From Candidatus Omnitrophota bacterium (lineage in GTDB: Bacteria; Omnitrophota; Gorgyraeia; Zapsychrales; Fredricksoniimonadaceae): a DNA stretch of 64,000 nucleotides. This document shows positions 20,601 to 48,736 of this stretch, piece by piece. Where the stretch lies: NCBI GenBank assembly GCA_015233675.1, contig JADFXH010000004.1:136492-200491 (forward strand), given 5' to 3'. Both the position numbers and the translations under genes were made by a program. Positions within the stretch are counted from its first letter, which is position 1. The number at the start of each line of letters is the position of its first letter. Below the pieces are notes generated by a model. That model made no database searches and had not been told where the DNA came from. It saw nothing but the letters and a program-made list of their open reading frames with translations.

Positions 20601-23600
20601 GGCCATGACCTTTGCGGATTCGTATCCGTGTTCACGCAAACTTTGGTTGGCAAAATAAAAAAACCTTCGCAACTGCGATTGTTGATTATATTGATATTCG
20701 GCGGCTTTAACGTCAAAGACGGTTTCATCAACAAGATACGGCTCATCTTTAAGGGCATCTTCAATAGTTGCGTGCAGGGCAAGGCTCCGGCTATCGAAAG
20801 GCTTGCTCATTTGCGAAGATAAACGCAACCTGATAATCCCATATAGCCACGGATATTCCAACCGCCGGTTATCCTGGATTGAAAAATTAAACAAATCATT
20901 GTTTAAAACATTTTGCTCATCAAATGTTAAGACAACACTCCCTTTGTAATCATTCTTCGAGAAACCAGCCGCTTTAAAGCGGTCCAACGGCGCAGCAAAT
21001 ATTTCATAAGCAATATGTCTATTGGTATCAATAAAGGCTTCCTCTCCTTTATAAAAATGGTTGATGCCGACCACATACGGCGTCTCGCCGGTAGCGTTCT
21101 TAACTTTGACGGTCCAATAAACCTGATTCAAAATCTCTCCTTCTTTAGATTTCGCCATTTGCGGCGGCATCCGGTCAAACGACACATTAGCTTGCGCATC
21201 TCTTTTTTTCACAGCATCCCGCATGATCATAAGAATATCCGCGTAAATCAGTGAAAATTTCCTGTCTAAACCCAATGTTTCCGGCAACGTTTGTCCTCCA
21301 ACTTCATCAATCCCATAATCATTCAAACGGTCATAATCCGTGTCAGGATCGAATTTGGAACTTACGCTTCCTTCACTATCTAAATAGCCCTTGGCCTGTA
21401 ACGCCTGAAAGACTTCTTCCGACAAAGTTTCATTCATGACCGTGACTTTTCCCGGTACAGTTCTTGGCACCGCCGGCAGGGTAAAACTGTGCTTATGAAG
21501 ATGCCCTTTCCCATCCGTATATTTTTCATTTGCTCCAGCCATGGCGTAGTCAGGTTGGCTATTGGTTGAGCTTAACTCCCCATACGGCATACGAAAGACT
21601 TGCAAGCCATGGTCCATGTGCTCATAATCGGGAAAATTATAACCCATAGGCCCCCACGGGGAATTATTCCCTGCCAGCCTCCCGATTTTCGTCAAATCCC
21701 ACTTTTTTAAAAATCGGTCCTGCTCTTCTTGGTCCATTGCCCCTATGTTAAAAGAATCCTTGATAAATAATGCGCCTTGCTTTACCCCTGCCCTTAATTC
21801 TTCCGGGAATAAATTATAATCTTCCGTGAAAGCCTTGATGAAAAACATATCAATCTTCTTGGGCCTCAAGGCTTGCTGTAGCGCCTGCGGGTATTGGTCA
21901 GCTTCAAAAACATCACATTGATGAAAATAGATCGTCCTGTCAACTCCGAGAACGTCTTTAAACCGGATGACATAGGTCTCAGCTAGGCCTGTTTGCGGCG
22001 TAATCCTAATGTCGCTTGCCTGGCGGTATTCCAGATTCGCGCGGATAAACGGCTCCAAACCTATCTGGTATCTGTCTGTTAAATATGAATGTGTTTCATC
22101 TGAGTAAGGATGGACCAAAGCTAGTTGTGTATGTGTTTCGATATAATTATGATATTCACTTTGCTGTAAATACCCGGTTATCATTTCTTTGAATGCCTCT
22201 TGTCCTTTAATGGAGCTCTGGGCTTTGGTCATCCCGACGATAGATAAGTGGTCTATATTAAAGGGAACGCGGAATGGCATGTTATTGATAAAATGCACTT
22301 CTTTCAGGTCCGGGAAAAGATCGAAAATCCGCAAATCCAGCCCGCCGGGATAAACCGCGGTTTTAGGCTCCCTTTGAAAATCCTGGTAGAACGATGGTCG
22401 TGTGCCAAGCATTTCCTTTGCCTTATCAAGTTCTCCATGTGCGACAAAGTTTTGAAATAACATCTGGTCATCCTCCTTCAAAAATACCTGAGACATTCTC
22501 TTTACTATAAGTGCCTTTAGCAGGTAACGACTATCCTTTTCCCAGTATATTGAAGACGTAAAGTTTTCCTGATTTTTGAGCGCTAACATCGCATGATCAG
22601 CCGAAACTGAAGTTATGACATCATAGTACGGCAGCAAAAAGGAGGTATAAATCTTTTCTGGAAGACTTTGGGATTCAAATCCCCTGCGATCTATGGTCCG
22701 GTCCATTGATGCGGGATCAAGGATATCACTTATCATTTGCCGATAACCAGACAAGCGAAACTTAACAATCTTTGTATTCTTCTGTATAGATGCCCAAAAA
22801 TTTTTGTCCTTTTTGGAATAATGTCTTAAGCCCTTGATGGTTGACGATTGCAAGGACAATGGATCCAAAATTTTTGGTAACTTGTCGCTTATATCATATA
22901 ACGCAACGTCAAACGCTACGTCCATTTGGCCGCTAATTTTTTGTTTTTCTTGACTCATAACTAAGGAAACACTTGTAAGCTTCTTCAAGAAAGAATCATA
23001 AAGTGAAAGCACAGAATCAATATCCCCTTCTTGTATGAGCATCTCATCTGTCTTGCCCTGATTATGCTCTAACCATTGGTCCAATTGAGCAAAAGCCGCA
23101 TCCGGATCTTGCTTTTCAATTTCGTCCTTGATAGCTCGTGCCATACCTGTTAGGAATGAATATATCTCCAGGATTATTCTATGTCTTTCAGGAGAGACGC
23201 CACTGTTCATTGCCTTGTCAAACGGCGTGAAATTTGCCTCGATAATTATCGCACGGTTCGAAATCCCTTCAGACAACGAATCAGGATCATGGGTAGTCAG
23301 AACCAAATTACTGGTTCCTTCAAAGGTAGTAGTATGGCTCCCCATCGCAAAATCCACACCTCCGGAAAAATATTTCCTTGGCACTGTCTGTTGTGTTACA
23401 GGACCGTAATCTTCCTTGATATAGTTATACGCCCCCTTCTTAAACGCTTGGACATACTGCGCCCAAATCTTGTCCTTTTGTGTTTTGTCCTTAATATCAA
23501 TACCACCGGTTTTATTCTGGTCTACATAGGCTTTTTTAAAAAGACTTTGCCTTACCTTATCTTTGAACCACATCGCCAGAATAAGCGAATTATAAACCTG

Positions 23601-24527: not shown

Positions 24528-24617
24528 ATAATTAGTGAAAGTATACCCGACAATTGCATACTTTGCCACCTGAAGACCGTTTTGCCTTGAGAAGCGCGCC
24601 CTGCCAAGGCGTACAAT

Positions 24618-24650
24618 AAAAAAGCTTAGACACATTGTCTAAGCTTTTTT
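24618..24650 (-). terminator. Rho-independent (bidirectional-looking) terminator
   Basis: AAAAAAGCTTAGACA-CAT-TGTCTAAGCTTTTTT, a perfect 12-bp stem flanked by A and T runs. It lies downstream of the 24680..25045 gene. Confidence 0.8.
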
Positions 24651-33286: not shown

Positions 33287-36200
33287 CTAATGCTCTTTTA
33301 ATTCCGGGATAGGAAACTTACTGACGTCTACTGTGCCCTTTTTCATCTCATAATTCCATTTCCAAATACTGTATATTGCTGGATAAACTAAGAGTTCCAT
33401 AACAAAACTACTAAAAATACCCCCGATCATAGGTGCTGCGATGCGTTTCATCACATCTGCCCCAGCTCCAATTGAGAACATAATAGGAACTAGCCCCATG
33501 AACATAGCGCTGACCGTCATGAGCTTTGGCCGAATACGTTTGACAGCCCCGTGAACAATAGCTTCTTCAAGATCCGACCTCGTTTTCATCTGCCCACTAC
33601 GGATAGTTTGATAATACGCAAGATCCAAGAAAAGCATCATAAAAACACCTGTTTCCGCATCAAGCCCCATGAGCGCAATCATTCCCACCCATACCGCAAT
33701 AGACATATTATAGCCCAGCATAAAAAGAAACCACACAGCGCCAACCAAAGAAAATGGCACTGCCAGCATGATAATCCCCGCCTTAACATGAGAACGGGTG
33801 TTCATATATAACAGCATAAAAATAAAAAACAACGTAATAGGAATAACAGTTTTCAAGCGCTCCCGGACACGCAGCATATTCTCATACTGCCCGCTCCAGA
33901 TAAGCGTATAGCCGGGTGTAGATTTAAGCTCCTTTTCAACCGCACGTTTAGCATCTTCCACAAAACTGCCCACATCACGGCCAGCAACATCCACATAAAC
34001 ATAACCAGAAAGCATACCATTCTCATTACGGATCATAGCTGGTCCTTGGACCAACTCTAACTTCGCAAGCTCTCCCAAGGGCACCTGTGCCCCCTGTGGT
34101 GTGGCAACAAGGACACGCTTGAGACTTGGTATATCATTACGTAACTCGCGCAGATAACGGACATTAACCGAATAGCGTTCCCGTCCCTCTATAGTCGTCG
34201 TCACGGGTTCGCCGCCAATCGCTGACATAATAACGTCTTCAACATCTCCTGCTGTCAATCCGTAACGAGCAAGAGCATCGGAATCAATGTCAAAATCAAG
34301 AAAATACCCGCCGGTCACACGTTCCGCATAAACACTGCGGGAGCCCGCCACCCCCTTAACAATTTTCTCAATATCTACACCTATACGTTCAATCTCCTTG
34401 TAATCCGCGCCTAATATCTTGATTCCAACCGGAGTCCTAACACCAGTTGAAAGCATATCAATACGGGCCTTGATCGGCATGGTCCAAGCATTAGACACGC
34501 CCGGAAATTTTACTCTCTCATCAAGCTCATTGATAATGTCCTGCCATGTAACGCTATCATTCCAAATAGGACGAACTAATCCCTGAAAAAATTCAGGCAT
34601 CCATGATGAATACCAGCGATGGACATGACGCCACTGGCTTTCCGGTTTAAGGACGATTGTTGTTTCCATCATGGAAAAAGGTGCTGGATCAGTCGCTGTT
34701 TCAGCACGTCCTGCCTTGCCGAATACCCGCTCAACCTCCGGAACAGTTCGGATAACCTTATCCATCTGTTGAAGAAGCTTTTCTGCTTCAGTGACAGAGA
34801 TCCCTGGCAAGGTTGTGGGCATATATAGAACCGTTCCCTCATTTAATGGAGGCATAAATTCCGACCCCAGCTTAAAATAAATTGGAATCACGGAGAGAAA
34901 AAGAAGTCCTGCACAAACCAATGTCGCAAAGCGGTGTTTGAGAACAAACCTGCAAGCTGGTTCGTAAACTTTAAACAAAACTTTACTGATGGGATGTTTC
35001 TCTTCCGGGTAATATTTACCGACGGTCAGCATATTTAATAAATTTGAAATCCATCGAGGACGGAAATTGACCTTATTGACGCGTACCAAAAGCACAAACA
35101 TGGCGGGAACAAGCGTAATTGCCAGAACTGCGGCAATAGCCATCGAAAAATTCTTGCTGAAAGCAAGCGGTCTAAAAAGCCTGCCTTCCTGATCAACAAG
35201 AGTAAAAACGGGTAAAAATGCCACCGCAATCACAAGAAGCGAAAAGAATACTGATGGACCGACTTCCTTCAAGGACGTTAATAGCACGTCATGGTAATCT
35301 TCACGACGGCCCTTGGCGTCCCATAACTGAATCTTCTTATAGGCATTTTCCACCATCACGATGGCCCCATCTACAAGGACGCCTATGGATATGGCAATAC
35401 CAGCTAACGACATGATATTTGATGTCAGCTTCAAAGCTAACATGGGGATAAAGGACAAAAGCACGGCCACAGGAATGGTGGCAATAGGCACACTCGCTGA
35501 TGGGAAATGCCATAGAAAGAAAATGATCACCAAACTTACAATAATCACCTCTTCAATGAGCTGATGTTTTAGAGTATCAATAGCTCGCAAAATTAAATCT
35601 GAACGGTCATACGTTGTTACGATTTCCACTCCCGGAGGAAGTGACGCTTTTACATCTTTTATCTTCTGCTTAACCCGATCAATCACTTGAAGGGCATTCT
35701 CTCCCGTACGCATGATGACGATGCCGCCAACGGTGTCCCCTTGGCCATCCAAATCAGCAACACCACGACGGATTTCTGGCCCAATGGTTACTTTTGCCAA
35801 ATTGCGCACTAGAACCGGACGCCCCTGAGTATCCGCGCCCACCACAATATTCTCGACATCTTTGGTTGATTTGATATAACCCCGGCCGCGAACCATGAAC
35901 TCAGTCCCAGCAAATTCGACCAGACGTCCGCCCACGTCGTTGTTACTCCTGCGTACAGCGTCAATGACTTTATTAATTGATATATTGTAGGCTTGCAAAG
36001 CTACCGGATCGACGTTGACTTGATATTGTTTCTGAAATCCTCCGACGGTTGCCACTTCTGAAACGCCAGGCACAGACTGTAACCAATAGCGTAAATACCA
36101 ATCTTGGAACGATCGAAGCTGCCCCAGATCATTTTTACCGCTCTTATCCACGAGTGCGTATTGATAGACCCAGCCGACAGAAGTTGCGTCAGGGCCTAAT

Positions 36201-36580
36201 TCTGTTCTAACCCCTTCAGGCAATCTTGAGATAACTTTATTAAGATATTCAAGCGTACGGCTTCTCGCCCAGTAAAGATCTGTTCCATCCTTAAAAATGA
36301 TATAAACATACGAATATCCAAAATCCGAGAAACCCCGGACGGCTTTGACATCAGGAGCCCCTAACATGGCCGTTACAATCGGATAAGTCACCTGATCTTC
36401 AATAATGTCCGGTGAGCGGTCCCATCTGGAATAAATAATAACTTGTGTATCTGAAAGGTCAGGAATAGCATCAAGCGGGATGTTGCGCACAGCCATGACA
36501 GCACCGACAATAGCCACTGCCGTCAAAATTAAGATAAGAAATTTATTCTTTGCCGAGAATTCAATAACCCTTTTAATCAT
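33287..36580 (-). CDS. Heavy-metal-efflux RND pump (CusA/CzcA family)
   Basis: 1097-aa ORF with the 12-TM RND architecture. It overlaps the adaptor gene stop by 4 nt. Confidence 0.95.
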   Translation of the reverse strand: MIKRVIEFSAKNKFLILILTAVAIVGAVMAVRNIPLDAIPDLSDTQVIIYSRWDRSPDIIEDQVTYPIVTAMLGAPDVKAVRGFSDFGYSYVYIIFKDGTDLYWARSRTLEYLNKVISRLPEGVRTELGPDATSVGWVYQYALVDKSGKNDLGQLRSFQDWYLRYWLQSVPGVSEVATVGGFQKQYQVNVDPVALQAYNISINKVIDAVRRSNNDVGGRLVEFAGTEFMVRGRGYIKSTKDVENIVVGADTQGRPVLVRNLAKVTIGPEIRRGVADLDGQGDTVGGIVIMRTGENALQVIDRVKQKIKDVKASLPPGVEIVTTYDRSDLILRAIDTLKHQLIEEVIIVSLVIIFFLWHFPSASVPIATIPVAVLLSFIPMLALKLTSNIMSLAGIAISIGVLVDGAIVMVENAYKKIQLWDAKGRREDYHDVLLTSLKEVGPSVFFSLLVIAVAFLPVFTLVDQEGRLFRPLAFSKNFSMAIAAVLAITLVPAMFVLLVRVNKVNFRPRWISNLLNMLTVGKYYPEEKHPISKVLFKVYEPACRFVLKHRFATLVCAGLLFLSVIPIYFKLGSEFMPPLNEGTVLYMPTTLPGISVTEAEKLLQQMDKVIRTVPEVERVFGKAGRAETATDPAPFSMMETTIVLKPESQWRHVHRWYSSWMPEFFQGLVRPIWNDSVTWQDIINELDERVKFPGVSNAWTMPIKARIDMLSTGVRTPVGIKILGADYKEIERIGVDIEKIVKGVAGSRSVYAERVTGGYFLDFDIDSDALARYGLTAGDVEDVIMSAIGGEPVTTTIEGRERYSVNVRYLRELRNDIPSLKRVLVATPQGAQVPLGELAKLELVQGPAMIRNENGMLSGYVYVDVAGRDVGSFVEDAKRAVEKELKSTPGYTLIWSGQYENMLRVRERLKTVIPITLFFIFMLLYMNTRSHVKAGIIMLAVPFSLVGAVWFLFMLGYNMSIAVWVGMIALMGLDAETGVFMMLFLDLAYYQTIRSGQMKTRSDLEEAIVHGAVKRIRPKLMTVSAMFMGLVPIMFSIGAGADVMKRIAAPMIGGIFSSFVMELLVYPAIYSIWKWNYEMKKGTVDVSKFPIPELKEH

Positions 36581-37749
36581 TTACCGGCCCCCTCAAGACG
36601 GCTTTCAGCATCAATCAAGAAATTACCGCTGACAACAACCTTGTCCCCTTCTTGAAGACCGCTCAGGACTTCATAATAACCTTTAGCTTTCGAACCTAAA
36701 CTCACCTCTTTGACCTCAAAAACATCATCGTGTACGACATGGACGATTTGACGAGTCCCCGAATCTAACACCGCATCTTCCTGAACTGCCAGCTTTTCTC
36801 CTAAATCAACATCTATTCTGGCTGAGCCAAATATTTCACCACGAAGGATTTTCTCCTTATCATCGACTTTCACCCTGACCCGTACAGTCCGCGATTGTGA
36901 ATCCAAAACTGGAGCTATACCAGAAACTGCTCCCTGGAACACTTTTCCCTGGAAAGATGGAGTTTCAAACGACACTTTTTGTCCCGGGCGAACTGTAGAA
37001 GCCTCATCAGCATAAATAGCCGCATAAACCCATGCTGTTGAGGATTTTCCAGGATAATACAAACTGTCATCTGCCTTACCTGCCTTGCCTAATTCATCAA
37101 CTTCAGCATCAGTCATCCCCTGAAGATAGAGTTTTCGACGACTTGCCTCTAAAAGAGACTTGGATTGCTCCTTCAGAGAGGATTCAGAACTGTTTTCAGC
37201 AGCCGTAGATGACTTTAATGCTTCAATAAACCCCGTCTGGGCTACGTATAAATCAGGATCGAACGCAACTCTTCCTGATGCGCGAATTTCAAGGACAAGG
37301 TCACGCTTCTGAACAAGCCCTGTCTTAACTCCAATAAGTTGCTGTTGGTTAGGATTCACATGAACACCGGACATTTCATCAGCTCCCGAATTTTCATTTT
37401 CATAAACAGGAATATAATCCATCCCCATTGAATCTTTCATAAAGGTGGGCGATGTTACTGAAGGGTCCATTGGGTTTCGGTAATAAATAATTTTTTTGTC
37501 TTTCTTGGACTGGGAATCCGTCGCAGGCACCCCTATGGCATGGTCTTCACTCTTAACAAGTTTCATCCCGCATATAGGGCACTCACCTGGTTTATCTGAA
37601 ACATAATCCGGATGCATCGGGCAATGATATTTAGCCTTCATTAATTGAGAGCTTTGTGACGATTGAGAGGTGCAGTGATAAATATAAAATATGCCTGCTG
37701 CCACAGCCATAATTGATAACAAAATTATTATCCAAATATTCTTTTTCAT
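36577..37749 (-). CDS. RND periplasmic adaptor (CusB/CzcB family) with an N-terminal Cys-rich metal-binding motif
   Basis: YHCPMHPDYVSDKPGECPICGMKLV followed by a membrane-fusion-protein barrel/lipoyl pattern. Confidence 0.9.
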   Translation of the reverse strand: MKKNIWIIILLSIMAVAAGIFYIYHCTSQSSQSSQLMKAKYHCPMHPDYVSDKPGECPICGMKLVKSEDHAIGVPATDSQSKKDKKIIYYRNPMDPSVTSPTFMKDSMGMDYIPVYENENSGADEMSGVHVNPNQQQLIGVKTGLVQKRDLVLEIRASGRVAFDPDLYVAQTGFIEALKSSTAAENSSESSLKEQSKSLLEASRRKLYLQGMTDAEVDELGKAGKADDSLYYPGKSSTAWVYAAIYADEASTVRPGQKVSFETPSFQGKVFQGAVSGIAPVLDSQSRTVRVRVKVDDKEKILRGEIFGSARIDVDLGEKLAVQEDAVLDSGTRQIVHVVHDDVFEVKEVSLGSKAKGYYEVLSGLQEGDKVVVSGNFLIDAESRLEGAGK

Positions 37750-39008
37750 TTTATCTCTCCCTCGTAATCCATATCACCCCCGACCACACGTTCCAAATCA
37801 GCTTTTGAAACCGCTAATGTGGCTAATGCATCTGCATATTCCATTTGATAATCTCGGTATGCCCTAAATGCTCCAATATATTCGCTAAATTCACCTGTAC
37901 CTGATTCATAAGCGACACGCGCTGTTGTTACCGCGGACTTTATACGCGGTAAAATGCCATCTTCATAAAGCCGGACAATATCGCCAGAAGCTTTTACTTT
38001 TGCCAATGCGCTTCGTCCTTCAAAAATCACGGTATTTTCTTCAGCTTGTAAATCCGCTTGTGCAGCCTTAAACCCTGCGCGGGCTTCTGCAATTTCCGGG
38101 CCCTGTTTCCCCCAAAACCATAGTGGTATGGTCAAGCCGACCGCTCCCATCCATTGTCCCTTGCTAAAATTTCCACCCTGCTCTTCATGTTTGTACTCCA
38201 ACCTAATATCCGGCAACAGTTCTTGCTTGCTTAAAGAATACTCTGTCTTGGCACGATCCATCATGTTCCTAAAAGACTTTAACTCCGGACGATCTTGTTT
38301 TATCCTTTCAATAATATTCTCTTCGGAAGCATCTTCCTGTATTGAATCCATGCGAATATCAATATCTCCCAGATCCTTAGGCGTCATATTAAGAAGGGAT
38401 GCCAGTAAACTTTGGGCAATGATCCGGTCTTGCTCAAACTGTTTTTGGGCTACCATGACCTTATCCTGCTCTGCACCAGCCCGTAAGCTATCTACCTGTG
38501 AACCGCGGCCTGAAGAATACTTAGTCTCTGCCGCTTTTGACATCTGGCTGGCCAAATCAAGACTGTCTTTAGTTAAGGCCAACTTGCGATTAGCCACAAA
38601 CATTGACGCATAAGCTTCTTTAACTTCTTTAATAACACGTTGCTGTGTTTCCTTATATTCCTGCGCGAAAGAATCCATCTCTTGCCTGGCAGCTTTCCTT
38701 TTTAAAAAAAGCTTGGTCGGAAAAGGGATCTCCTGTGAAACTGAAAGGGTTTTCATCGGCTTACCATTGGAAGATGGAAATATCTTATCATATCCATACT
38801 CAACCATGGGATCAGGAAGATTGCGAAAAAAAGCAACACGAGCACGGGCCGCTTCATAGCGGGCACTAGCGGCTAAAATTTGAGGATTTTGAGATAAGGC
38901 TTGCTGAATCAATTCATGGAGCCCCATATGTTTACCTTCTTGGGCAAACATAACTGTCGGTGCAATCAACAACATAAATAATAGCAGCACTGTTACACGC
39001 ATTCTCAA
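37746..39008 (-). CDS. Outer-membrane efflux factor (TolC/CzcC/CusC family)
   Basis: 420 aa with a signal peptide and two tandem OEP-like repeats. Translationally coupled to the adaptor gene. Confidence 0.85.
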   Translation of the reverse strand: MRMRVTVLLLFMLLIAPTVMFAQEGKHMGLHELIQQALSQNPQILAASARYEAARARVAFFRNLPDPMVEYGYDKIFPSSNGKPMKTLSVSQEIPFPTKLFLKRKAARQEMDSFAQEYKETQQRVIKEVKEAYASMFVANRKLALTKDSLDLASQMSKAAETKYSSGRGSQVDSLRAGAEQDKVMVAQKQFEQDRIIAQSLLASLLNMTPKDLGDIDIRMDSIQEDASEENIIERIKQDRPELKSFRNMMDRAKTEYSLSKQELLPDIRLEYKHEEQGGNFSKGQWMGAVGLTIPLWFWGKQGPEIAEARAGFKAAQADLQAEENTVIFEGRSALAKVKASGDIVRLYEDGILPRIKSAVTTARVAYESGTGEFSEYIGAFRAYRDYQMEYADALATLAVSKADLERVVGGDMDYEGEIK

Positions 39009-39086
39009 TCCCCTTATAAAGTTCCCCTATTTCTAAAGACGCTCACTAACAAAGACGAAAGGAATGAAAGAAAGTTACGATGTTTT

Positions 39087-39638
39087 TTAAGCCCCAATAT
39101 CCTTTTTCAAGTATTGTTTTAACCCAGCTACCGCACGAAACTGCAGAATTTTCACAGCCCCCACCGAATTATGCATGATTTGAGCTGTTTCCTCTAAAGT
39201 ATGACCGTTTAAAAATCTCAATGAAATTACTTCTGCTTGGCTCTCGGTTAAAACTGTAAGCATATGTTTTATTTCACCAGCCATAAATCCTTCTCTGTGA
39301 TCTTCTGTTGATACCGTAATACTGTCATCCTCTATTTCATCAAGCGAGGAGGATTTCTGGCGATCCATCTTACGGTAATAATCGATAAGCAGATTACGAG
39401 CTATCTTAAACAACCATGCAGGGAAATTGCCAGTTTGATTCTTAATGGAGCCCACCATCCGTACAAAAACTTCGCTGGTTAAATCCTCTGCATCCTCTCG
39501 GTTACGTGCCCGATATGACAGGAATCGCAACACAGTCGGATAGTAATGTTTAACCAACTGGCCCATAGCCCCCTCATCCATTTGACGGGCCTGTCCTAAA
39601 ATATCATCCAAATTATCTGGATTTTTAAATTCATCCAT
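39087..39638 (-). CDS. ECF (group 4) sigma-70 factor
   Basis: Region 2 (DLTSEVFVRMV...WLFKIARNLLIDYYRK) and region 4 (VISLRFLNGHTLEETAQIMHNSVGAVKILQFRA). Confidence 0.9.
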   Translation of the reverse strand: MDEFKNPDNLDDILGQARQMDEGAMGQLVKHYYPTVLRFLSYRARNREDAEDLTSEVFVRMVGSIKNQTGNFPAWLFKIARNLLIDYYRKMDRQKSSSLDEIEDDSITVSTEDHREGFMAGEIKHMLTVLTESQAEVISLRFLNGHTLEETAQIMHNSVGAVKILQFRAVAGLKQYLKKDIGA

Positions 39639-39766
39639 GACTTAAGAAACCTTTCTACTAACTGACTCCGACGCCATATTCATAGACCATACTCTCACCT
39701 ATAAAAATGCACAAACTTCGGATGTAGTAGAAACCCCATTAAGGAACTGTCCATGAGCTCTCCTGT

Positions 39767-40099
39767 CTATTTATTGCCGCTAACCTCTTTATCAGCTATG
39801 GCACTGTATTTTTCAGGATTCTTTTTAAAATCCTTTATACACATGGGACAGCAAAGACTGTAAATTTTTCCTTTATACATAATTTTAACCGGTCCTCCCA
39901 TTGCCCCTTTCTCACCAGGAGCAAGAACTTTCTCGCCACTTACAGGACAAATTTTATTCCCTGTCTCTACTGCGTTGGATGTCTGTACGATTGAAGTTAC
40001 TACTTGAACATCTTCTGTCTTTTGCGCTTCTTGGGCTAAAACGAAACCGCTGGATAAACTTAAAACAGCTAATGCTAAAATTAACGATTTAGTATTCAT
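39767..40099 (-). CDS. Secreted YHS/TRASH-like metal-binding protein (paralog of 31927..32217)
   Basis: Signal peptide MNTKSLILALAVLSLSSGFVLAQEA. GNKICPVSGEKV...YKGKIYSLCCPMCIKDFKKNPEKY. Confidence 0.7.
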   Translation of the reverse strand: MNTKSLILALAVLSLSSGFVLAQEAQKTEDVQVVTSIVQTSNAVETGNKICPVSGEKVLAPGEKGAMGGPVKIMYKGKIYSLCCPMCIKDFKKNPEKYSAIADKEVSGNK

Positions 40100-40232: not shown

Positions 40233-40721
40233 TCAGAAGAGCTGCCTAATGGAGGCCCCAAATAAACAAAATAAACCGAAGTTCGCAATGCAGATTTTGT
40301 GGCTTAACCAACTTTCAATTCTTTTTTTAATCTCTTCCCTTATGGCCCTGGTCTTGATAACCTTATCTTCCCAAGCCCCTTCAAACTTTGAGGGGTCAGT
40401 AAAACTCCAGTGAAACCGCTTGGCAATTCCTGGGAATATCGGACAACGCTCTGCACTGGTTTCATCACACACCGTAATAACATAGTTATAAAGTTTACCG
40501 CTCTTGACGCAATCAAGGACCGACCGTGTCTGTTTATGGGAAACATCAATCCCTATTTCCTTTAGGACCTCAATCACGACTGGATTCAACTTCCCTGGCT
40601 CAATCCCGGCACTTTCGGACTCAAACCTATCACCAGCCAATTTCCGCAACAATTCCTCTGCCATCTGACTACGTGCTGAATTATGAATACAAACAAACAG
40701 AACTTTTTCCTTTGCCATCAA
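40233..40721 (-). CDS. arsC: Arsenate reductase, LMW-PTPase (thioredoxin-coupled) type
   Basis: KVLFVCIHNSARSQMAEELL P-loop and downstream Cys residues (VCDETSAERCP). The ORF carries ~25 extra hydrophobic C-terminal residues of doubtful significance. Confidence 0.9.
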   Translation of the reverse strand: MMAKEKVLFVCIHNSARSQMAEELLRKLAGDRFESESAGIEPGKLNPVVIEVLKEIGIDVSHKQTRSVLDCVKSGKLYNYVITVCDETSAERCPIFPGIAKRFHWSFTDPSKFEGAWEDKVIKTRAIREEIKKRIESWLSHKICIANFGLFCLFGASIRQLF

Positions 40722-40733
40722 TCACCACCCTTA

Positions 40734-41777
40734 TTAACAACACTGTCTAATGAACCACGTATTCTTCTCTAAAAACTTGGCCACATTGACCAAGCCGATC
40801 ATAACAGGAACTTCGATTAGCGGACCAATGACCGCGGCAAATGCCACCCCCGAATTGATACCAAAGACGGCCACAGCAACAGCAATAGCTAATTCGAAAT
40901 TATTGCTCGCTGCTGTAAACGAAAGCGTAACTGTTTTACCGTAATCAGCTCCCATTTTTCGACTTATATAAAACGAAACGATGAACATGATCACAAAATA
41001 TATCAGAAGCGGAATCGCAATCCGGACAACATCCAAAGGAATCTTTACAATATATTCACCTTTAAGGGAAAACATAACGAAGATCGTAAAAAGAAGAGCG
41101 ATAAGCGTAATGGGACTAATACGAGGGATGAAAACCTTCTCATACCATTCTCTTCCCCTTAGACGCAATAGGACAAGCCTAGAAATCATCCCCGCTAGAA
41201 AAGGAATGCCTAAATAAATAAAAACACTTTTAGCTATCTGAGCAATCGTAACATTCACAACAACACCTTTGAGGCCAAACCAATCGGGCAAAATTGTAAT
41301 AAAAACCCACGCATACACAGAAAAAAACAATACCTGAAAAATGGCGTTAAAAGCTACCAGACCTGCACAATACTCGGCATCCCCATCAGCTAGATCGTTC
41401 CAAACAATGACCATAGCAATACACCGGGCCAATCCTATCAAGATCAATCCGATCATATATTCCGGAAATCCTCTTAAGAATACGATGCCCAAAGCAAACA
41501 TTAATATGGGCCCGATGATCCAATTCTGAACAAGAGATAGTGTCAAAATTTTATAATCCTTAAAAACATCCCCCAGTTCTTCATATTTCACCTTCGCCAA
41601 GGGGGGATACATCATAAGAATTAAACCAAAAGCTATCGGCACATTGGTTGTACCTGACCGGAACTGATTCCAGAATCCCACGATCCCCGGAAAGAAAAAC
41701 CCAGTACCAACGCCTACAATCATTGCGAGAAATATCCATACTGTTAAATATCGGTCTAAGAAAGCAAGTTTCTTCAT
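40734..41777 (-). CDS. acr3: ACR3-family arsenite efflux permease
   Basis: [30 protein letters not shown]... 347 aa and about 10 TM helices. Confidence 0.95.
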
Positions 41778-42082
41778 TTATTTATTCCTTTTGTTTGAAT
41801 ACGGCAACACCCACCTTCTATTTTTATAGCTTTAATATTCACAAGCCCATCAGCAACTTTCTCATGTGCTATAGAGAGTATTCTGGTAAAAGTAGGCCGT
41901 GAAACTTTCATCAGCTTAGCAGCCTGTGCATGGGTCAATCCCTCTAAATCTGCTAATCTTATAGCTTCAAACTCATCAATCGTTAACCCTATAATATCCC
42001 CTTCTCCCAGTTTCTTAAACTTGGGACGGAAACACCTCTCTCCCGGCAAACACCTTATCCATCTTGTTTTTTTAGGCCTCAT
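41774..42082 (-). CDS. DUF134 (UPF0251) DNA-binding protein, first gene of the ars operon
   Basis: [59 protein letters not shown], then a vicinal Cys pair (GGCCRIQ). Overlaps the acr3 start by 4 nt. Confidence 0.8.
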
Positions 42083-42094
42083 TACATAAACCCC

Positions 42095-42116
42095 ATTATG
42101 AACTATGGTTCATAAT
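42095..42116. promoter_or_regulatory. Perfect 9-bp inverted repeat (ATTATGAAC-TATG-GTTCATAAT); candidate operator of the ars operon
   Basis: Read directly. It lies 13 bp upstream of the DUF134 start codon. Confidence 0.5.
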
Positions 42117-42188
42117 ACCAATAAATATTCTTTTGTCAACATTCCCTACGAGCCAAATCGAACAGGAGGTGAGGTTGCCCTCACCGTT

Positions 42189-42340: not shown

Positions 42341-42619
42341 TTATAAAGATCGCAAAAATCTTTTAACATCCTCGTGATCACCAGCCAAAACAAACTCAAC
42401 CAAATCCTTTTACCATCTAAAAAGAATTCTAACTCTTAAGCCTTTTCGCACTTCCCAATAAGGACCATGCAAACGCTTTAAACCAAGCCCCTCATGAAGA
42501 GGCCGGTCTATGGAGAGTATTTCTATCAAATCAGCAACAACTCCCTTAATTTCTTCTTTATCCTTGGAAGTTAAGGCTTTGATAGAACGTTCAAAGCTGG
42601 ATTTGAATTCAATCTTCAT
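42341..42619 (-). pseudogene. RelE/ParE-superfamily toxin gene interrupted by an in-frame TAA after codon 69
   Basis: The ORF ends ..GLRVRILFRW-TAA. The same frame continues KDLVEFVLAGDHEDVKRFLRSL-TAA, which is the expected conserved toxin C-terminus. Overlaps the antitoxin stop by 4 nt. Confidence 0.6.
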
Positions 42620-42879
42620 AAAGATTTAAGATAATCTTTAGCACCCTTTGCCGATGTAAAAGTTTTGCCTTTTTCAGCAGCCAACTTCTCTATCTTTTGC
42701 CATTCCTGTGGGGTGTACGGAGACTTGACTGTTACTTGGCAGGGGACAAGCACAACACCTTCTTTCGTTATGCTAAAACCTACTGATTCACCTTCTTTCA
42801 AACGCAACATTTTACGAATGCGGTTAGGGATAGTTACTTGCCCTTTACTGGTAATCTTGGCTGTTTCGAGAATGGTCAT
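42616..42879 (-). CDS. AbrB/MazE/SpoVT-type antitoxin
   Basis: SKGQVTIPNRIRKMLRLKEGESV looped-hinge-helix motif; 87 aa. Confidence 0.8.
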   Translation of the reverse strand: MTILETAKITSKGQVTIPNRIRKMLRLKEGESVGFSITKEGVVLVPCQVTVKSPYTPQEWQKIEKLAAEKGKTFTSAKGAKDYLKSL

Positions 42880-42932: not shown

Positions 42933-43367
42933 TCAATCAACTTGAGAGTAAATAAATTCATCGATTTCACTATCAAATCTTCCCCAATCTGGCCTCGATT
43001 GCTGACTTTCCCTCTTCAATTCTGCTTTCAAAGAATCAAGAATGAAGCCATCTATCCTCTTCCAAATATACGAAGCAAACCGGACAGGCTTAAAATTCCC
43101 CTCCTTATCACGGTATCTCAAATTATACGTTTTAATTTTTTCATATAGAATAAACGTGGCATCGGATAGAATCTCTTCACCAAAGCGTTCGACATACAGC
43201 GGAAAAGTCTTCTTATAGATCCTAAAGATAACAAATTTAGTATGACGAAGGATCAGCTCTTCGATTTCTTTCTTGGAACCCTTTTTTGCTTTGGCTATGA
43301 GGCGTCTTTCTTCAAGAAGAGAAATTCGAGGGTATTTGGGTAAGGAATGAAGATAATCTATTAACAC
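42933..43367 (-). CDS. Sigma-70 region-1.2/2-only protein (144 aa), copy 1
   Basis: LLEERRLIAKAKKGSKKEIEELILRHTKFVIFRIYKK...VRFASYIWKRIDGFILDSLK resembles sigma regions 1.2-2. No region 4. The start codon is uncertain (GTG in the ORF track, no clear SD). Confidence 0.65.
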   Translation of the reverse strand: MLIDYLHSLPKYPRISLLEERRLIAKAKKGSKKEIEELILRHTKFVIFRIYKKTFPLYVERFGEEILSDATFILYEKIKTYNLRYRDKEGNFKPVRFASYIWKRIDGFILDSLKAELKRESQQSRPDWGRFDSEIDEFIYSQVD

Positions 43368-43387: not shown

Positions 43388-44527
43388 TTATAAATCCTTC
43401 AATAAATAACTTGTACTACGCCCACCAGCATCGTCCTTGATCAGGATCTTCTTTTCGATCAATTCAAGAATATCCCGCAATGCAGTATCATGAGAACATT
43501 TGGCGATCTTGGCCCATTTTGAAGATGTAAGCTTCCCTTCAAAACCTTCAAACAACTTATTAATCACCATTATCTGGCGCTTATTAAAAGAGCCTTCAGG
43601 ATAAGTTTCCCAAAAACGTGCTTTCTTAAAAACTCCTGCCAATGTCTTTTCAGTCGTATCTATGGCCCTATCCAGACAGGCTAAAAACCACTTAATCCAG
43701 ATAGTTATATCCATGTCCTCATTCTTTTGAATTTTTTCAAGCACGTCATAATAGGCATTCCTTTCCTGACGTATCTGAACAGACATGCTATAAAAACGTT
43801 GTGCGCTGCCATCGGCACGTGCAAGTTGCATATCCGTGATGGCCCGCGCAATACGCCCGTTACCATCATCAAAAGGGTGAATTGTCACAAACCACAAATG
43901 AGCAATGGCCGCTTTAAGCACAAGATCAATCCCAGCGTCTTGATTAAACCAAGCCATGAAATTCTTCATCTCATTATTAAGACGTGATGCTTGAGGGGCT
44001 TCAAAATGAACTTTTTGACGTCCTATTGGCCCGGAAATAACTTGCATAGGGCCATGTTTATCATCACGCCAGCTGCCGACAACGATTTTTTGCATACCGC
44101 TTCGACCAGTTGGAAAAAGACTCGCATGCCAACCGAATAAACGATCTTTGGTCAAAGATTTCTTAAATTTCTGTGTCGCATCCAACATCATCTCAACCAC
44201 CCCATCGACATTACGATCAGAAGAAACAAGCCCAGCAATGTCCATCCCCAATTTTCTAGCGATAGATGAGCGCACCTGAGCAGGATTAAGAATTTCTCCT
44301 TCAATCTCGCTACTCTTTAAAACATCAAGAGTAAGTGTTTGTAGGATAGCTTCCGAACGCAAAGGAAATCCTAAGGATTCCATGCGACCGATCAGCCGCC
44401 CCTGCCGATTGCGCACCTCTCCCAGCAAAGACATGATCTGTTGATCATCCCAAATGAACTTTGGCCAATTATTTAATTGATGTATATAATGCATTATTCT
44501 ACGCACTCCTTGCGTAGAATATACCAC
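43388..44527 (-). CDS. Fic-family protein (N-terminal Fic_N-like region, C-terminal winged-helix-like region)
   Basis: Active site HPFDDGNGRIARA and inhibitory-helix motif SSEIEG. Confidence 0.9.
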   Translation of the reverse strand: MVYSTQGVRRIMHYIHQLNNWPKFIWDDQQIMSLLGEVRNRQGRLIGRMESLGFPLRSEAILQTLTLDVLKSSEIEGEILNPAQVRSSIARKLGMDIAGLVSSDRNVDGVVEMMLDATQKFKKSLTKDRLFGWHASLFPTGRSGMQKIVVGSWRDDKHGPMQVISGPIGRQKVHFEAPQASRLNNEMKNFMAWFNQDAGIDLVLKAAIAHLWFVTIHPFDDGNGRIARAITDMQLARADGSAQRFYSMSVQIRQERNAYYDVLEKIQKNEDMDITIWIKWFLACLDRAIDTTEKTLAGVFKKARFWETYPEGSFNKRQIMVINKLFEGFEGKLTSSKWAKIAKCSHDTALRDILELIEKKILIKDDAGGRSTSYLLKDL

Positions 44528-44779: not shown

Positions 44780-47700
44780 TTAACTTGCTGTTAAAGAGTT
44801 TTCTTGAACTTTTAACCCAAGGAATTGCTTTAAGTTCGTCATCGGCCGGATATTGATAATCACCGGCACAACGCCTGAAAAATCACCAGACCTAAACTGC
44901 TCGAGTATGGCCGGGCCAAACTTCATCTCAATGGCCTGCCCATCCCGGAAAACATCCAAGCCCATGTTGCGGGCATTCATGTCAATACCACCCCGTGTCT
45001 TAGAGATCATAGCTTCATCGTATTCAGAACGGCTTTGTGGAAGTGCCCGTAAAGGCGAGTGAGTTGGAGCTTGGGACGGAGCCAACAAAGAATGACGGGA
45101 GCCATCTTGATAACGGCTTAAAACTGCCTTAAGTTTATCGAAATCAAAATCGCAATATTTTTTTTGACTCAACCGTTGCATTTCGGGCATAGTGCGAATC
45201 GAATGAATTCTAAGCTCGCTTTCATCAGAAATATAAAATTCAAAACCCATAGGGCTCTCGGATATGCCTCCATCAGGGCCATTATCATCATAAACTATAT
45301 GGAGCGTCTCCACCGCGTGCGGCACGAGTCCCAGCATTGGATTTGCATCGAGATACCCATACAAATTAAACGCAACACGTTTTTGGTACCACTCGCTATC
45401 ATTAGGTTCAATGCCCATAAAAAGCTCGAAACTATCGTATCCACGTGCGTGTGCGCGAGGACTTCGATCTTTAAAAATAGCTTCCAACTCGTTGTGAACA
45501 TTTAAAATATCCTCATGGAATTTATGAACTTTATCAACAATCCCATCGAGGGACTCCTGATCCAAATTGGCAAATTCTTTTTGCATGTTTGCGACAAACC
45601 TTGCAGTTCTATCCGCATTCCATTTGATTTTTCCCAATTCCTGGAAGACATACGCCAAAACATCCGTATAAAGAGGATCATGTGCCCCTAACACCTCGGT
45701 GTGCAGTCTTCCATTTTCCTCCAATATCCCGAAACGATTAAGAATCAAACGGGTCCCATCTTTCCTGTTGACTCGCAGAACATCCTTTTGCGGTAAATAA
45801 GCAACTGATTCCGGAAAAATGTCCCCTGATTCAGCGGATGAATAGATGATAGCTCCGGATGCATTGAGAATCAGGCACCTCTGGTGATAGGGATCATTCA
45901 CTAAGGCAAACTGATAAAGCGTGGGAGCTTCTCCATATTTTTGTTTCCGGCCAAAACCAGTAATATCTGCGGTGGCTGCGTATTGTTTCAAGACCAAAAA
46001 AAGATCCCTGCGCATGGTTTCTTCCTCATTTCTTCCCTGTTTCGATACCCCACCACCTAATTTACCGGGAATCAGACTTCTAATCACTGTTTCTCCGTTC
46101 AAGCTAAAAGTCCTCAAGACATTGTCACGCATTTGAGAAATTCGTCCATTCTTTTTATCATACTGAATTTCGTCACCGGGCCGCCAGCCAAACAAATCTT
46201 CATTTGTAGATTTATCTTTTTTTAGTATTAATTTAATGGAATATTGTACAAGCGTGTCTGATGGCACCTCTGTTTTCATTTGGTCATCCCATTTATAGCT
46301 CCTGAGATAGCTTAATTTAAACTCAATTACGAATTTATTTTCTCCCTTCTGATTGGATGAAATAAAACGCCGCTCCTCGGTTCGAATAGGAATGCCGGGG
46401 CCACCTCGGCCATTAGGTTTATATTGAGCACTGAACCCAGGCAAAAAAACATCATATTCGCTAAAACCACCTAATCTTTCTTGATCCCGAATTATTTTTT
46501 CTTTAAATTTATTTTCTTTAAGCCATGTCTCAAATTCCGATATGGACTTTAATACCGCATCTACATTCAAATCGTGCAAATCATTCGTCTCATGTGTCCG
46601 GACAAAAAAATCCCCGTCTTCCGGTCCTTTGGGGCCCTTGGCTTCTCTATTAAAATCATTGTGCAAATCAGATTCCCCTTCTTCAACGAAGTTTGTCGTT
46701 CCTTCATTCTTCAGCGGGCGTTTTTGAGGGCCTACCATCTTTTTGGCTTGAACGATGAAATGTCCAAAAACATGCAAATCTTCGGATGAATCTTTAAGCA
46801 TTCCCAGGGCAGTGTCCGCCACATGCGCATAGCCATATTCCAAACTCTGGGAAGGAATATAATTCTGATAGTGTTGGATGCCCACCCTCATCCGGGTAAA
46901 GTTTCGTCTTGCCTGTTCATCATTACCCAAAACGGTCTTTTTTAATTCAATAATGTCAGCTAATTGGGGCTCATCCGGTAAAGCCGCAAGAGATTCCAAA
47001 ATATTCAGGATTGTTTTCCTGGCTTCAAGTAATTGAGCAGCGCCTTCATTAGCACTAGTTAACAGAGACTGAATAAAATTGATTACCGACTTTACGTTGT
47101 CAGGAATAATTTGGCCAATGGTGTCTTTGTCGATACTCCCAAAAGTGTCGATCAGATTGATATTCTTGGCAGCCATTTCCTTAATTTGCGCGCTTAATCC
47201 ACCATAATAATCAAAGTGGTCACGAATGTACTCAACCGCAAGTAAAAAAGGAGCTCCTTTCTTGATTCGAGGAGCCAACCTTTGATTATTATAAAATGAC
47301 AGGGAAGAGCGAAACAGTTTAACAAGTTGATGCGCTTCTGAAGCTCCTTTTTTTCCCGCTTCTTCTAATTGAGCCAAAATTTTATCCTGATCCAGAGAAG
47401 GTGTTTGCAAAAAGCGGTTGATTTCAATGACAAGGACTGCCATTTCCTCAGCCAACTGTTTGTATTCGTTGGGCACAACGGATAAAGGAATCTTCACTTC
47501 TTCACGTATACGCTGGCCTTCTGTATAAAGACTTCCCAGAACATTGCCATCCATTATCATTGCCGAGTCTAGTTTCTCGGTCGTATCGTAACGCTGAATA
47601 TTTGCCGAGACCATGGCCATATCACCATCAGTAGACATCGCCAAATCCTCGCCAGGCTCTAATTTTGATTCCCGCTTAATAAGTTCACTTGGTTTTCGAT

Positions 47701-48736
47701 CCCATACCTTCCATCCTCCTGAAAAATATTTTCGTGGAATCAGCCGCTTGCTTCCCTCATCGATGTCTTCCTTGATGTAATTAAAAACCCCTTTCTTGTA
47801 AGCTTTTAAATACTGCTCATAAATCTTTTCTTTAACTGCCGGGTCATTAGATAACACACCGCCTGTCTTTCCTTTATTACTATAAACCTGATTAAGTAAA
47901 GCATCCTTCAAGGCCAACTTATACCACGATGCTAAAATCATTGAATAAAACATCTGCCGTAACAGAGCAAAATTCTCACCTTGATTGACCTCTTTTTCAA
48001 GCTCGGGAATAATGATTTCGCGCACAACCTGGGAAGCCATCGCATGTTCCTTGTTTACATCGTTACGGAGCTGACCTATAGCCAAATGTTTTTCCAGCGA
48101 TAAATAATCCTCTTCCAGCATGACCTTTAAATGTGAGCCTACCACATAACCGACATTATTGCGTTCTAAAACCTTGGCCTTATCTGCCACGATCCATACC
48201 TTATTAAACGTATTTACCGGAATATTCGTCACCCCATACATCTCACGAGCTTTTGTATACACATTGTCCCAAAACTTCTTGCCTAATTCTTTTTCAGGAT
48301 AAATAAGAGATGCGGTCAATTGCTTGAGGATGTAATCCTGCGCTAACATGTCCCGGCCCATTTCGGTTTGTCCCAACTCTTGCGGGATCATGCGGTCTTT
48401 CTCATAAGGACTTAAGTTAACCCAAAGATCGTCTTCTTTGATCGTCAATGCGGCTAAAAAATACTTGATCAACTTTTGGGATTCTGCCTTAAACTCAGTA
48501 GAGTTAATCCTAAAGCCTGACTTGCCTGTATCCAAAATAAAATCAAATAAAAGAGGGTTGTCGGGGTGGACCTTCAGGCCTTTCATCATGACAGGTGCGT
48601 AAGCCGCAGAGACATTGACCAAGCTCCCGGGCGCAGGCAAACGAAAGCCTTGAGCTTGGGCCAAAGGCATAGGCCCAAAGGTATTAATTAAGAATGCTAC
48701 TAGGATCAATATGTGAATTAATGGGATTCGGCTCAT
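44780..48736 (-). CDS. Large (1,318 aa) exported modular protein, paralog of 17625..24527 in its N-module and C-tail only
   Basis: Signal peptide MSRIPLIHILILVAFLINTFGPMPLAQA. The N-module is alignable block by block (KGLKVHPDNP.FDFILD, LIKYFLA.LTI.E.DLWVNLSPYEK.R, TEMGRD.LA.DY.LKQ.TASL.YPE, IPVNTFNKVW, PRKYFSGG). The C-tail is RGGIDMN...VVPVIINIRPMTNLKQFLGL. Confidence 0.9.
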   Translation of the reverse strand: MSRIPLIHILILVAFLINTFGPMPLAQAQGFRLPAPGSLVNVSAAYAPVMMKGLKVHPDNPLLFDFILDTGKSGFRINSTEFKAESQKLIKYFLAALTIKEDDLWVNLSPYEKDRMIPQELGQTEMGRDMLAQDYILKQLTASLIYPEKELGKKFWDNVYTKAREMYGVTNIPVNTFNKVWIVADKAKVLERNNVGYVVGSHLKVMLEEDYLSLEKHLAIGQLRNDVNKEHAMASQVVREIIIPELEKEVNQGENFALLRQMFYSMILASWYKLALKDALLNQVYSNKGKTGGVLSNDPAVKEKIYEQYLKAYKKGVFNYIKEDIDEGSKRLIPRKYFSGGWKVWDRKPSELIKRESKLEPGEDLAMSTDGDMAMVSANIQRYDTTEKLDSAMIMDGNVLGSLYTEGQRIREEVKIPLSVVPNEYKQLAEEMAVLVIEINRFLQTPSLDQDKILAQLEEAGKKGASEAHQLVKLFRSSLSFYNNQRLAPRIKKGAPFLLAVEYIRDHFDYYGGLSAQIKEMAAKNINLIDTFGSIDKDTIGQIIPDNVKSVINFIQSLLTSANEGAAQLLEARKTILNILESLAALPDEPQLADIIELKKTVLGNDEQARRNFTRMRVGIQHYQNYIPSQSLEYGYAHVADTALGMLKDSSEDLHVFGHFIVQAKKMVGPQKRPLKNEGTTNFVEEGESDLHNDFNREAKGPKGPEDGDFFVRTHETNDLHDLNVDAVLKSISEFETWLKENKFKEKIIRDQERLGGFSEYDVFLPGFSAQYKPNGRGGPGIPIRTEERRFISSNQKGENKFVIEFKLSYLRSYKWDDQMKTEVPSDTLVQYSIKLILKKDKSTNEDLFGWRPGDEIQYDKKNGRISQMRDNVLRTFSLNGETVIRSLIPGKLGGGVSKQGRNEEETMRRDLFLVLKQYAATADITGFGRKQKYGEAPTLYQFALVNDPYHQRCLILNASGAIIYSSAESGDIFPESVAYLPQKDVLRVNRKDGTRLILNRFGILEENGRLHTEVLGAHDPLYTDVLAYVFQELGKIKWNADRTARFVANMQKEFANLDQESLDGIVDKVHKFHEDILNVHNELEAIFKDRSPRAHARGYDSFELFMGIEPNDSEWYQKRVAFNLYGYLDANPMLGLVPHAVETLHIVYDDNGPDGGISESPMGFEFYISDESELRIHSIRTMPEMQRLSQKKYCDFDFDKLKAVLSRYQDGSRHSLLAPSQAPTHSPLRALPQSRSEYDEAMISKTRGGIDMNARNMGLDVFRDGQAIEMKFGPAILEQFRSGDFSGVVPVIINIRPMTNLKQFLGLKVQENSLTAS

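Follow-up and report, generated by a model that had tools for sequence, protein, structure and literature searches.

The closest described systems to the one reported here are the arsenic-responsive repressors of the ArsR/SmtB family (R773 ArsR, AfArsR, CgArsR1, SpArsR, and ArArsR). In yeast, the non-ArsR bZIP protein Yap8 (Arr1) senses As(III) directly through cysteine thiolates and controls ACR2 and ACR3. Among ArsR proteins, vicinal cysteine pairs serve as ligands for As(III) or methylarsenite (MAs(III)) in AfArsR (C95, C96, C102), CgArsR (C15, C16, C55), and SpArsR, and the bare vicinal pair of SpArsR accounts for its selectivity for methylarsenite (PMC11868830). We analyzed a 64-kb stretch of DNA from a Candidatus Omnitrophota bacterium (GCA_015233675.1, contig JADFXH010000004.1, positions 136,492 to 200,491; hereafter, the window), which carries on its minus strand a three-gene ars operon led by a gene for a protein of the DUF134/UPF0251 family. 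Our analysis indicates that this DUF134 protein is probably a local, autoregulated, non-ArsR repressor of the DUF134-acr3-arsC operon that is released when As(III) or methylarsenite binds to its thiolates.

The order of the three genes, DUF134, then acr3, then arsC, is as an earlier note made from the letters of this DNA alone had read it. The regulator gene (41774..42082, minus strand) encodes a 102-amino acid (aa) protein that matches PF02001 with E 2.9e-19 and 69.9 bits (cut-off 27), placing residues 2-92 on profile positions 6-94 of 98; against NCBIfam PRK04217 it scores 57 bits, under the equivalog cut-off of 115. The acr3 gene (40734..41777, minus strand) encodes a 347-aa arsenite efflux permease (SBF family, E 4e-62) that passes the TIGR00832 equivalog cut-off of 282.8 with 460.4 bits. 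The arsC gene (40233..40718, minus strand) encodes, from its ATG, a 161-aa arsenate reductase of the thioredoxin-coupled, low-molecular-weight protein tyrosine phosphatase type (LMWPc E 1.6e-15; 58 bits, passing the Pfam cut-off of 23). Its open reading frame (ORF) spans 40721..40233, and the probable ATG at 40718 is preceded by a GGGTGGTGA ribosome-binding site. An alignment with 10 homologues locates the CX5R loop CIHNSAR and the cysteine pair VCDETSAERC, and both align to motifs of pI258 ArsC, with equivalents of Cys82 and Cys89. Overlaps of 4 nucleotides (nt) had been reported for this operon; the acr3 ATG and the DUF134 stop codon do share 4 nt (ATGA), but acr3 and arsC are 12-15 nt apart. 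A hidden Markov model (HMM) built from six ArsR/SmtB seeds found no ArsR/SmtB gene in the window, as the earlier note had also concluded, and this negative result is meaningful because the same HMM recovers ArsR in 36 control loci (E 1e-7 to 1e-29).

A consensus scan placed a sigma-70 promoter ahead of the DUF134 gene, with a -35 hexamer TTGACA (42134..42139, minus strand), a 16-nt spacer, and a -10 hexamer TATTAT (42112..42117, minus strand), which together give 11 of 12 consensus matches and have TG ahead of the -10 box. The -10 hexamer overlaps the left arm of the putative operator (minus-strand reading TATTATGAAC). This element, a perfect 9-4-9 palindrome, ATTATGAAC-TATG-GTTCATAAT, lies at 42095..42116 and is present in a single copy in the window; its full 22-bp sequence is 5'-ATTATGAACCATAGTTCATAAT-3', and the core conserved among relatives is TTATGAAC-N4-GTTCATAA. 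The perfect inverted repeat had been noticed before, although its distance from the DUF134 ATG is 12 nt rather than the 13 bp then given. Between the two we read a probable ribosome-binding site, GGGG (42091..42094, minus strand, 8 nt before the ATG), a position occupied by GGAG or AGGAG in homologous loci. A scan of the full window found no Rfam family, and the palindrome is therefore not part of a known RNA element. The possibility that the palindrome is statistically unusual by itself was rejected, as the window contains four perfect 9-nt repeats (spacer of at most 6 nt) and ten shuffled versions contained 0-5. Its significance comes from the fact that it sits over the promoter and is conserved in related loci.

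This conservation was assessed in a scan of one genome per species, which returned 379 relatives of the DUF134 protein and from which the best 80 loci (761 kb in total) were fetched. The regulators in these loci are 63-84% identical to the one in the window, and the genomes, which include the complete one of Candidatus Velamenicoccus archaeovorus (L037), are mostly labelled Omnitrophota. When a zone within 60 nt of the start codon was searched, 77 of the 80 loci had the operator core with at most three mismatches, 9-22 nt ahead of the start of the DUF134 gene, and in 53 it was exact. Two of the other three loci have a symmetric TGCAC variant and the third has an exact site farther upstream; with variant forms counted, an operator lies over the promoter in 80/80 loci. 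Of 81 loci, 76 have a TTGAC element no more than 40 nt ahead of the operator; in 73 of these, the operator starts 24-32 nt from the first base of TTGAC, most often 30 nt. The operator accordingly overlaps the -10 box in some loci, as in the window, and in others follows it immediately, covering the transcription start. Steric repression classically has this layout, a palindrome so placed on a strong promoter of the constitutive type, and, as the operon to be repressed begins with the regulator gene itself, the DUF134 gene is expected to be autoregulated. The hypothesis of a wider regulon reached through extra operators was dropped, as neither the window nor the 761 kb of related loci contained a credible additional copy; the lone exact extra site in the 761 kb is that of the locus whose operator sits farther upstream.

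The sequence of the site covaries with residue 63 of the protein, which is at the start of its recognition helix. Nine of the genome loci have an A-to-C change in the left arm of the operator together with the mirror T-to-G change in the right arm (TGCAC...GTGCA), and the regulators of all nine have Ser63 (SRSTF or HRSTI), whereas SRPTF, and hence Pro63, is encoded in all 72 loci in which one or both arms have TGAAC. Ten loci fetched by other routes follow the same rule: Ser63 accompanies TGCAC in seven (L086, L088, L169, L168, L082, L084, and L167), and Pro63 accompanies TGAAC or a near variant in three (L081, L087, and L089). When these sets are pooled, Ser63 is found in 16/16 loci with TGCAC/GTGCA in both arms and Pro63 in 75/75 TGAAC loci, Pro63 being retained in three loci in which a single arm has changed. 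Neighbour-joining places the Ser63 loci in at least two distinct clades, each of them nested among or beside Pro63 loci. This covariation is the strongest non-experimental evidence that the DUF134 protein would read the site as a symmetric dimer, and its predicted binding to the palindrome is well supported, though indirectly.

The genes downstream of these operators point to arsenic. A protein search returned thousands of relatives of the DUF134 protein, the best 120 of which are 66-96% identical to it, and every named source organism among these 120 is Candidatus Omnitrophota or Omnitrophica. Clustering of the ORFs from the 80 loci, followed by annotation of the cluster representatives, revealed a recurring operon whose genes are present in varying subsets: DUF134, ArsP_1 permease, ArsM-like S-adenosylmethionine (SAM) methyltransferase, Thioredoxin_3, an unannotated secreted CxxC protein, DsbD_2, (DGC), Acr3, and ArsC. 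Downstream genes for Acr3, ArsC, or the ArsM-like methyltransferase are found on the same strand in 61/80 loci. In 11/80 an ArsP gene is followed by the end of the contig, in 7/80 the ArsP_1/Thioredoxin_3/DsbD module stands alone within 5-6 kb, and in 1/80 there is no downstream DNA. More distant proteins with the cysteine pair, looked up singly, head the same operons (P0380, P0387, P0314, P0121, and P0123); for P0124, the contig ends at the DUF134 gene. Across the 761 kb of DUF134-led loci, the ArsR/SmtB HMM found one clear ArsR gene, in L029.

Two further features of the extended operons were observed. A conserved protein of 136-209 aa (for example, L068 6329-6763; its cluster is present in 37 loci) is always encoded between Thioredoxin_3 and DsbD_2; it has a signal-peptide-like N terminus, a CxxC motif, and no Pfam match, and it appears to be an uncharacterized member of the ars-linked thiol module. 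In L085 (3583-3708), a 41-aa fragment with a weak match to DUF134 lies just upstream of an SBF/Acr3 gene within an ArsP-led operon, and it may be a relic from the fusion of two DUF134-led modules.

For comparison, 80 metagenome loci were collected whose Acr3 is 72-85% identical to that of the window, and in 64 of them at least 400 nt of upstream DNA was available. A canonical ArsR gene is present in 36 of these 64 loci, often directly ahead of acr3, and a DUF134 gene is upstream in five, one of which lacks the cysteine pair, is far from acr3, and shares its locus with an ArsR gene. Neither ArsR nor DUF134 was found in the other 23 loci. Two unrelated regulator families thus occupy a single operon slot for this transporter module, and, because ArsR is the usual leader of closely related Acr3 genes elsewhere, one family has displaced the other.

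The candidate arsenic ligands of the DUF134 protein lie on either side of its helix-turn-helix (HTH). The vicinal pair Cys92-Cys93 (41804-41809, minus strand), to which the earlier note had drawn attention as following directly on the HTH, is indeed at the C-terminal end but lies ∼10 residues past the last helix, beyond a short strand. In ars-linked homologues, where that note had suggested testing for it, the pair is maintained (Cys92 in 120/120 and Cys93 in 119/120 top matches), and it is absent from DUF134 proteins outside ars operons. The protein has two further conserved cysteines, in its N-terminal part, that went unmentioned there, Cys11 (42050-42052, minus strand; 119/120) and Cys17 (42032-42034, minus strand; 118/120). 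Cys22 is found in 94 of the 120, and the window protein has Phe there. The same cysteine picture holds in a second subclade (119 proteins), with the pair in 116-117 of them. Some divergent ars-linked members (L086, L088, P0124, and P0125) are without Cys17 and Cys22 and retain Cys11 and the pair, and P0123 has lost Cys17 alone. Three thiolates that include a vicinal pair also make up the As(III) sites of AfArsR and CgArsR (PMC11868830).

Within the DUF134 family, these cysteines mark out one clade. An exhaustive search of 1.84 billion representatives yielded 3,241 DUF134 relatives. In an alignment of the best 150 family representatives (50% clustering level), the window protein has all of the features of a true DUF134/UPF0251/COG1342 member, namely a basic N-terminal R-P-[RK]-x arm, F-x-P, the HTH, and a C-terminal IEGG motif. 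IEGG is general in this set, whereas a Cys-Cys pair after it is found in 9/150, the nearest relatives of the query. Most DUF134 proteins, unlike the ars clade, lack this pair and instead have zinc-ribbon-like tails or fused Nitro_FeMo-Co domains; the ars clade differs from the rest by its GG-CC sequence, Cys11 (and usually Cys17), its own operator, and its ars operons. All six DUF134 proteins without the pair whose context was inspected lead non-ars genes. Four of these are paralogues in the same genomes, which precede genes that, from a reading of their sequences by eye, are Nitro_FeMo-Co-like or C_GCAxxG-like (L056 498-1336, L069 10735-11573, L078 8722-9407, and L071 9279-9975, some with a zinc-ribbon-like CxxC tail). 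The other two are P0147, which leads heterodisulfide-reductase-like genes, and P0145, which precedes an amino-acid kinase. Because DUF134 proteins without the pair lead other genes, the pair and Cys11 are clade-specific and track the ars context, and the family-wide comparison hints that the tail after IEGG could be a variable sensor module.

The predicted structure separates this protein from ArsR. It consists of a basic N-terminal arm (MRPKKTRW), a tri-helical HTH (residues 35-82) whose recognition helix (residues 62-82, 41837-41899) contains Pro63, and the IEGG motif. In an AlphaFold2 (AF2) model based on 128 sequences, the core (residues 31-88) has predicted local distance difference test (pLDDT) values of 90-96 and forms three helices between two short strands (E31-33, H35-46, H51-57, H62-82, and E86-88), the N-terminal 30 residues have values of 63-70, and the tail from residue 95 is below 50. 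When the confident core was compared with the PDB by Foldseek, the best matches were region 4 of sigma-E, SigR, and SigD and the DeoR DNA-binding domain; these are weak (E at least 0.08), although the local superposition is good (target-normalised TM-score 0.68-0.76 and root-mean-square deviation 0.5-1.2 Å over 40-51 residues). The top 50 PDB fold matches (sigma region 4, DeoR N-terminal domain, LsrR, and KorA) included no ArsR/SmtB protein. A sequence search of the PDB gave a marginal match to the Bacillus subtilis DeoR DNA-binding domain (7bhy, E 0.19). At E of at most 0.01 in Pfam, the protein had no HTH_5 or HTH_20 match, and sub-threshold matches were limited to sigma-70 region 4 and to HTH_23-type or generic HTH models.

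From these models, the DUF134 protein is predicted to lack the alpha1-alpha2-alpha3-alphaR-beta1-beta2-alpha5 winged-helix fold of ArsR/SmtB and to have a wingless, sigma-4/DeoR-N-like HTH, and it has no sequence or fold relationship to any of the ArsR/SmtB proteins named above. The likeness is one of function, with no sign of homology: as in ArsR/SmtB systems, the regulator is encoded by the first gene of an ars operon, would be autoregulated, and has an inverted repeat overlapping its own promoter. Like them, it is also a small, probably dimeric protein whose conserved cysteines lie beside or outside the helix that reads the DNA; a vicinal pair is among these, as it is in AfArsR, CgArsR, and SpArsR. 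Unlike in ArsR, the candidate ligand set joins a cysteine of the N-terminal arm with the cysteine pair of the C-terminal tail. The protein also differs from sigma-70 region 4 and from SorC/DeoR HTH proteins, being a stand-alone protein of ∼100 aa that would recognize a palindrome and not a -35 element and that has neither a sigma region 2 nor a sugar-binding effector domain. Yap8 is a eukaryotic activator of unrelated fold and is not operon-encoded. By these comparisons, the DUF134 protein appears to function like ArsR yet lacks what defines ArsR/SmtB proteins, and this would give a domain of unknown function its first assigned role.

We infer that the protein binds as a dimer and that it represses and does not activate, as well as which ligand it senses, which cysteines hold that ligand, and by what allosteric route; together, these points suggest the following mechanism. 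It agrees with the suggestion of the earlier note that this may be a non-ArsR arsenite-responsive repressor, which is supported by the outcome of each computational check named there. A dimer would bind the half-sites TTATGAAC and GTTCATAA, the centres of which are 12 bp apart, with the recognition helix (S61-R62-P63-T64-F65...) reading each half-site and residue 63 contacting or positioning its sixth base. Bound there, it would overlap the -10 box and the transcription start of the strong sigma-70 promoter and block RNA polymerase. Trivalent arsenic, either As(III) or methylarsenite, for which two thiolates would be enough, would be held by thiolates outside the HTH, those of Cys92-Cys93 in the flexible tail just after IEGG and of Cys11 in the basic N-terminal arm, with Cys17 and Cys22 as frequent auxiliary ligands. 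Tying the tail to the arm would then pull the protein off the DNA and derepress efflux and reduction. The parts of this proposal differ in strength: the operator-repressor relationship and an ars regulon are very likely, and arsenic sensing through Cys11 and Cys92/93, predicted from the pattern of conservation, is the best available inference and one that we favor with some reserve.

Several points weigh against the proposal. Arsenic binding and DNA binding by the DUF134 protein are both predicted. The two cysteine-bearing segments are of low confidence in the AF2 monomer, so any proximity of Cys11/17 to Cys92/93 is hypothetical; the predicted flexibility of these segments would be compatible with ligand-induced ordering. 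An ArsR could conceivably be encoded elsewhere in the genome, outside the window. In L029 (2573-2881), a DUF134-led locus, an ArsR gene is also present ∼1.6 kb upstream, beside an ArsM-like gene, so that the two kinds of regulator can occur near each other in a genome. The arsenic specificity of the ArsP_1/Thioredoxin_3/DsbD module, which stands alone in seven loci, rests on family naming, and ArsC from the window scores 109 bits against TIGR02691, below the equivalog cut-off of 174. Finally, four to five conserved cysteines exceed the needs of a three-thiolate (S3) site and could hold Zn or an Fe-S cluster instead.

This last point leads to the most serious alternative, which we consider unlikely, that the DUF134 protein represses through the palindrome but its cysteine cluster senses something else, be it thiol or redox stress, the state of a Zn or Fe-S centre on Cys11/17/22/92/93, or a soft metal(loid) such as Sb(III), with the ars genes induced as part of a broader response. 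Four to five conserved cysteines in a 100-aa protein would suit such a role, and the commonest first gene after the regulator is the ArsP_1 permease, followed by the thiol/disulfide proteins Thioredoxin_3 and DsbD_2. This alternative would also accommodate the seven loci with no Acr3, ArsC, or ArsM within 5-6 kb, the zinc-ribbon-like CxxC tails or Nitro_FeMo-Co domains after IEGG in other DUF134 proteins, and the Cus-like heavy-metal efflux system that adjoins the window operon. However, in 61 of 80 loci the operon includes Acr3, ArsC, or an ArsM-like methyltransferase, which argues for arsenic, as does the window operon itself, which besides the regulator contains acr3 and arsC only. In addition, the minimal set in divergent members is three cysteines that include the vicinal pair, the known S3 pattern for As(III) and not the Cys4 of a Zn or Fe-S site (PMC11868830), and the window protein is without Cys22.

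It is far less probable that the DUF134 protein is a positive factor at the ars promoter, either an activator or an accessory protein resembling sigma region 4. The core fold and the weak Pfam matches do resemble sigma-70 region 4, but the site is a symmetric palindrome unlike a -35 element, located over the -10 box or just past it, a position at which a bound protein should obstruct RNA polymerase; the near-consensus -35 and -10 boxes make an activator unnecessary, and the protein has no sigma region 2. The idea that palindrome and cysteine pair are coincidental, the operon being constitutive or controlled by an ArsR from elsewhere with DUF134 as an unrelated neighbour, is scarcely credible, for although an inverted repeat of 9 nt is no rarity in a 64-kb stretch, this reading is effectively refuted by comparative data, namely the conservation of gene order, operator, promoter spacing, and cysteines over some 90 loci, the covariation of helix residue and operator base in separate clades, and the fact that other lineages with closely related Acr3 have ArsR at this place in the operon.

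With repression by DUF134 and its release by arsenic as the preferred reading, a broader one can be formulated, for and against which we see the case as evenly balanced: the ars clade founds a second family of arsenic-sensing repressors in prokaryotes, one not homologous to ArsR, and provides the first function for DUF134/UPF0251. On this broader reading, DUF134 proteins may be modular small regulators in which the segment after IEGG is the sensor (a cysteine pair, a zinc-ribbon tail, or Nitro_FeMo-Co) and clamps the basic N-terminal arm, and the ars clade may bind As(III) or MAs(III) through an S3 site that Cys11 forms with Cys92/93. If true, arsenic sensing through thiolates evolved anew on a DNA-binding scaffold unrelated to that of ArsR, and there would be a first functional handle on a widespread domain, which ∼3,200 representatives (50% clustering level) match. 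It would also explain the apparent absence of a regulator from Omnitrophota ars operons and would offer a compact sensor (∼100 aa plus a 22-bp operator), with a Pro63/Ser63 specificity switch matched to A/C in the half-site, for biosensors orthogonal to ArsR. Full-text searches, whose coverage leaves out most subscription journals, found no published function for any member of DUF134/UPF0251/COG1342/PF02001, no earlier description of an ars role for DUF134, and no relevant work on ars operons without ArsR or on Omnitrophota acr3; prior description is probably, though not certainly, absent. One apparent mention of DUF134 together with arsenic was discarded, as it concerns DUF1349.

Other features of the window were recorded. 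ArsC has a C-terminal extension of ∼22 aa (...SHKICIANFGLFCLFGASIRQLF, window 40233-40300) that is missing from 10 close homologues, which end near ...WLSQN, and the loss of a stop codon may be its origin. Upstream of the ars promoter, the minus strand encodes an AbrB/MazE-type antitoxin (42616-42879) overlapping a 69-aa partner without a Pfam match (42410-42619), then a 144-aa ORF without a match (42933-43367) and a DUF4172-Fic protein (43388-44527). Two very large minus-strand ORFs, at 17625-24635 (2336 aa) and 44780-48736 (1318 aa), have no Pfam match at E of at most 1e-5. Directly downstream of arsC, also on the minus strand, are genes for a secreted YHS/TRASH-domain protein (39767-40099), an extracytoplasmic function (ECF) sigma factor (39087-39638), and a CusCBA-like heavy-metal efflux system of the resistance-nodulation-division (RND) type. 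This system has three components: an OEP protein at 37746-39008, a membrane-fusion protein at 36577-37749 that contains an HMBD metal-binding domain, and an ACR_tran pump at 33287-36580. The ars operon and these genes (33287-40099) make up a metal-resistance neighbourhood.

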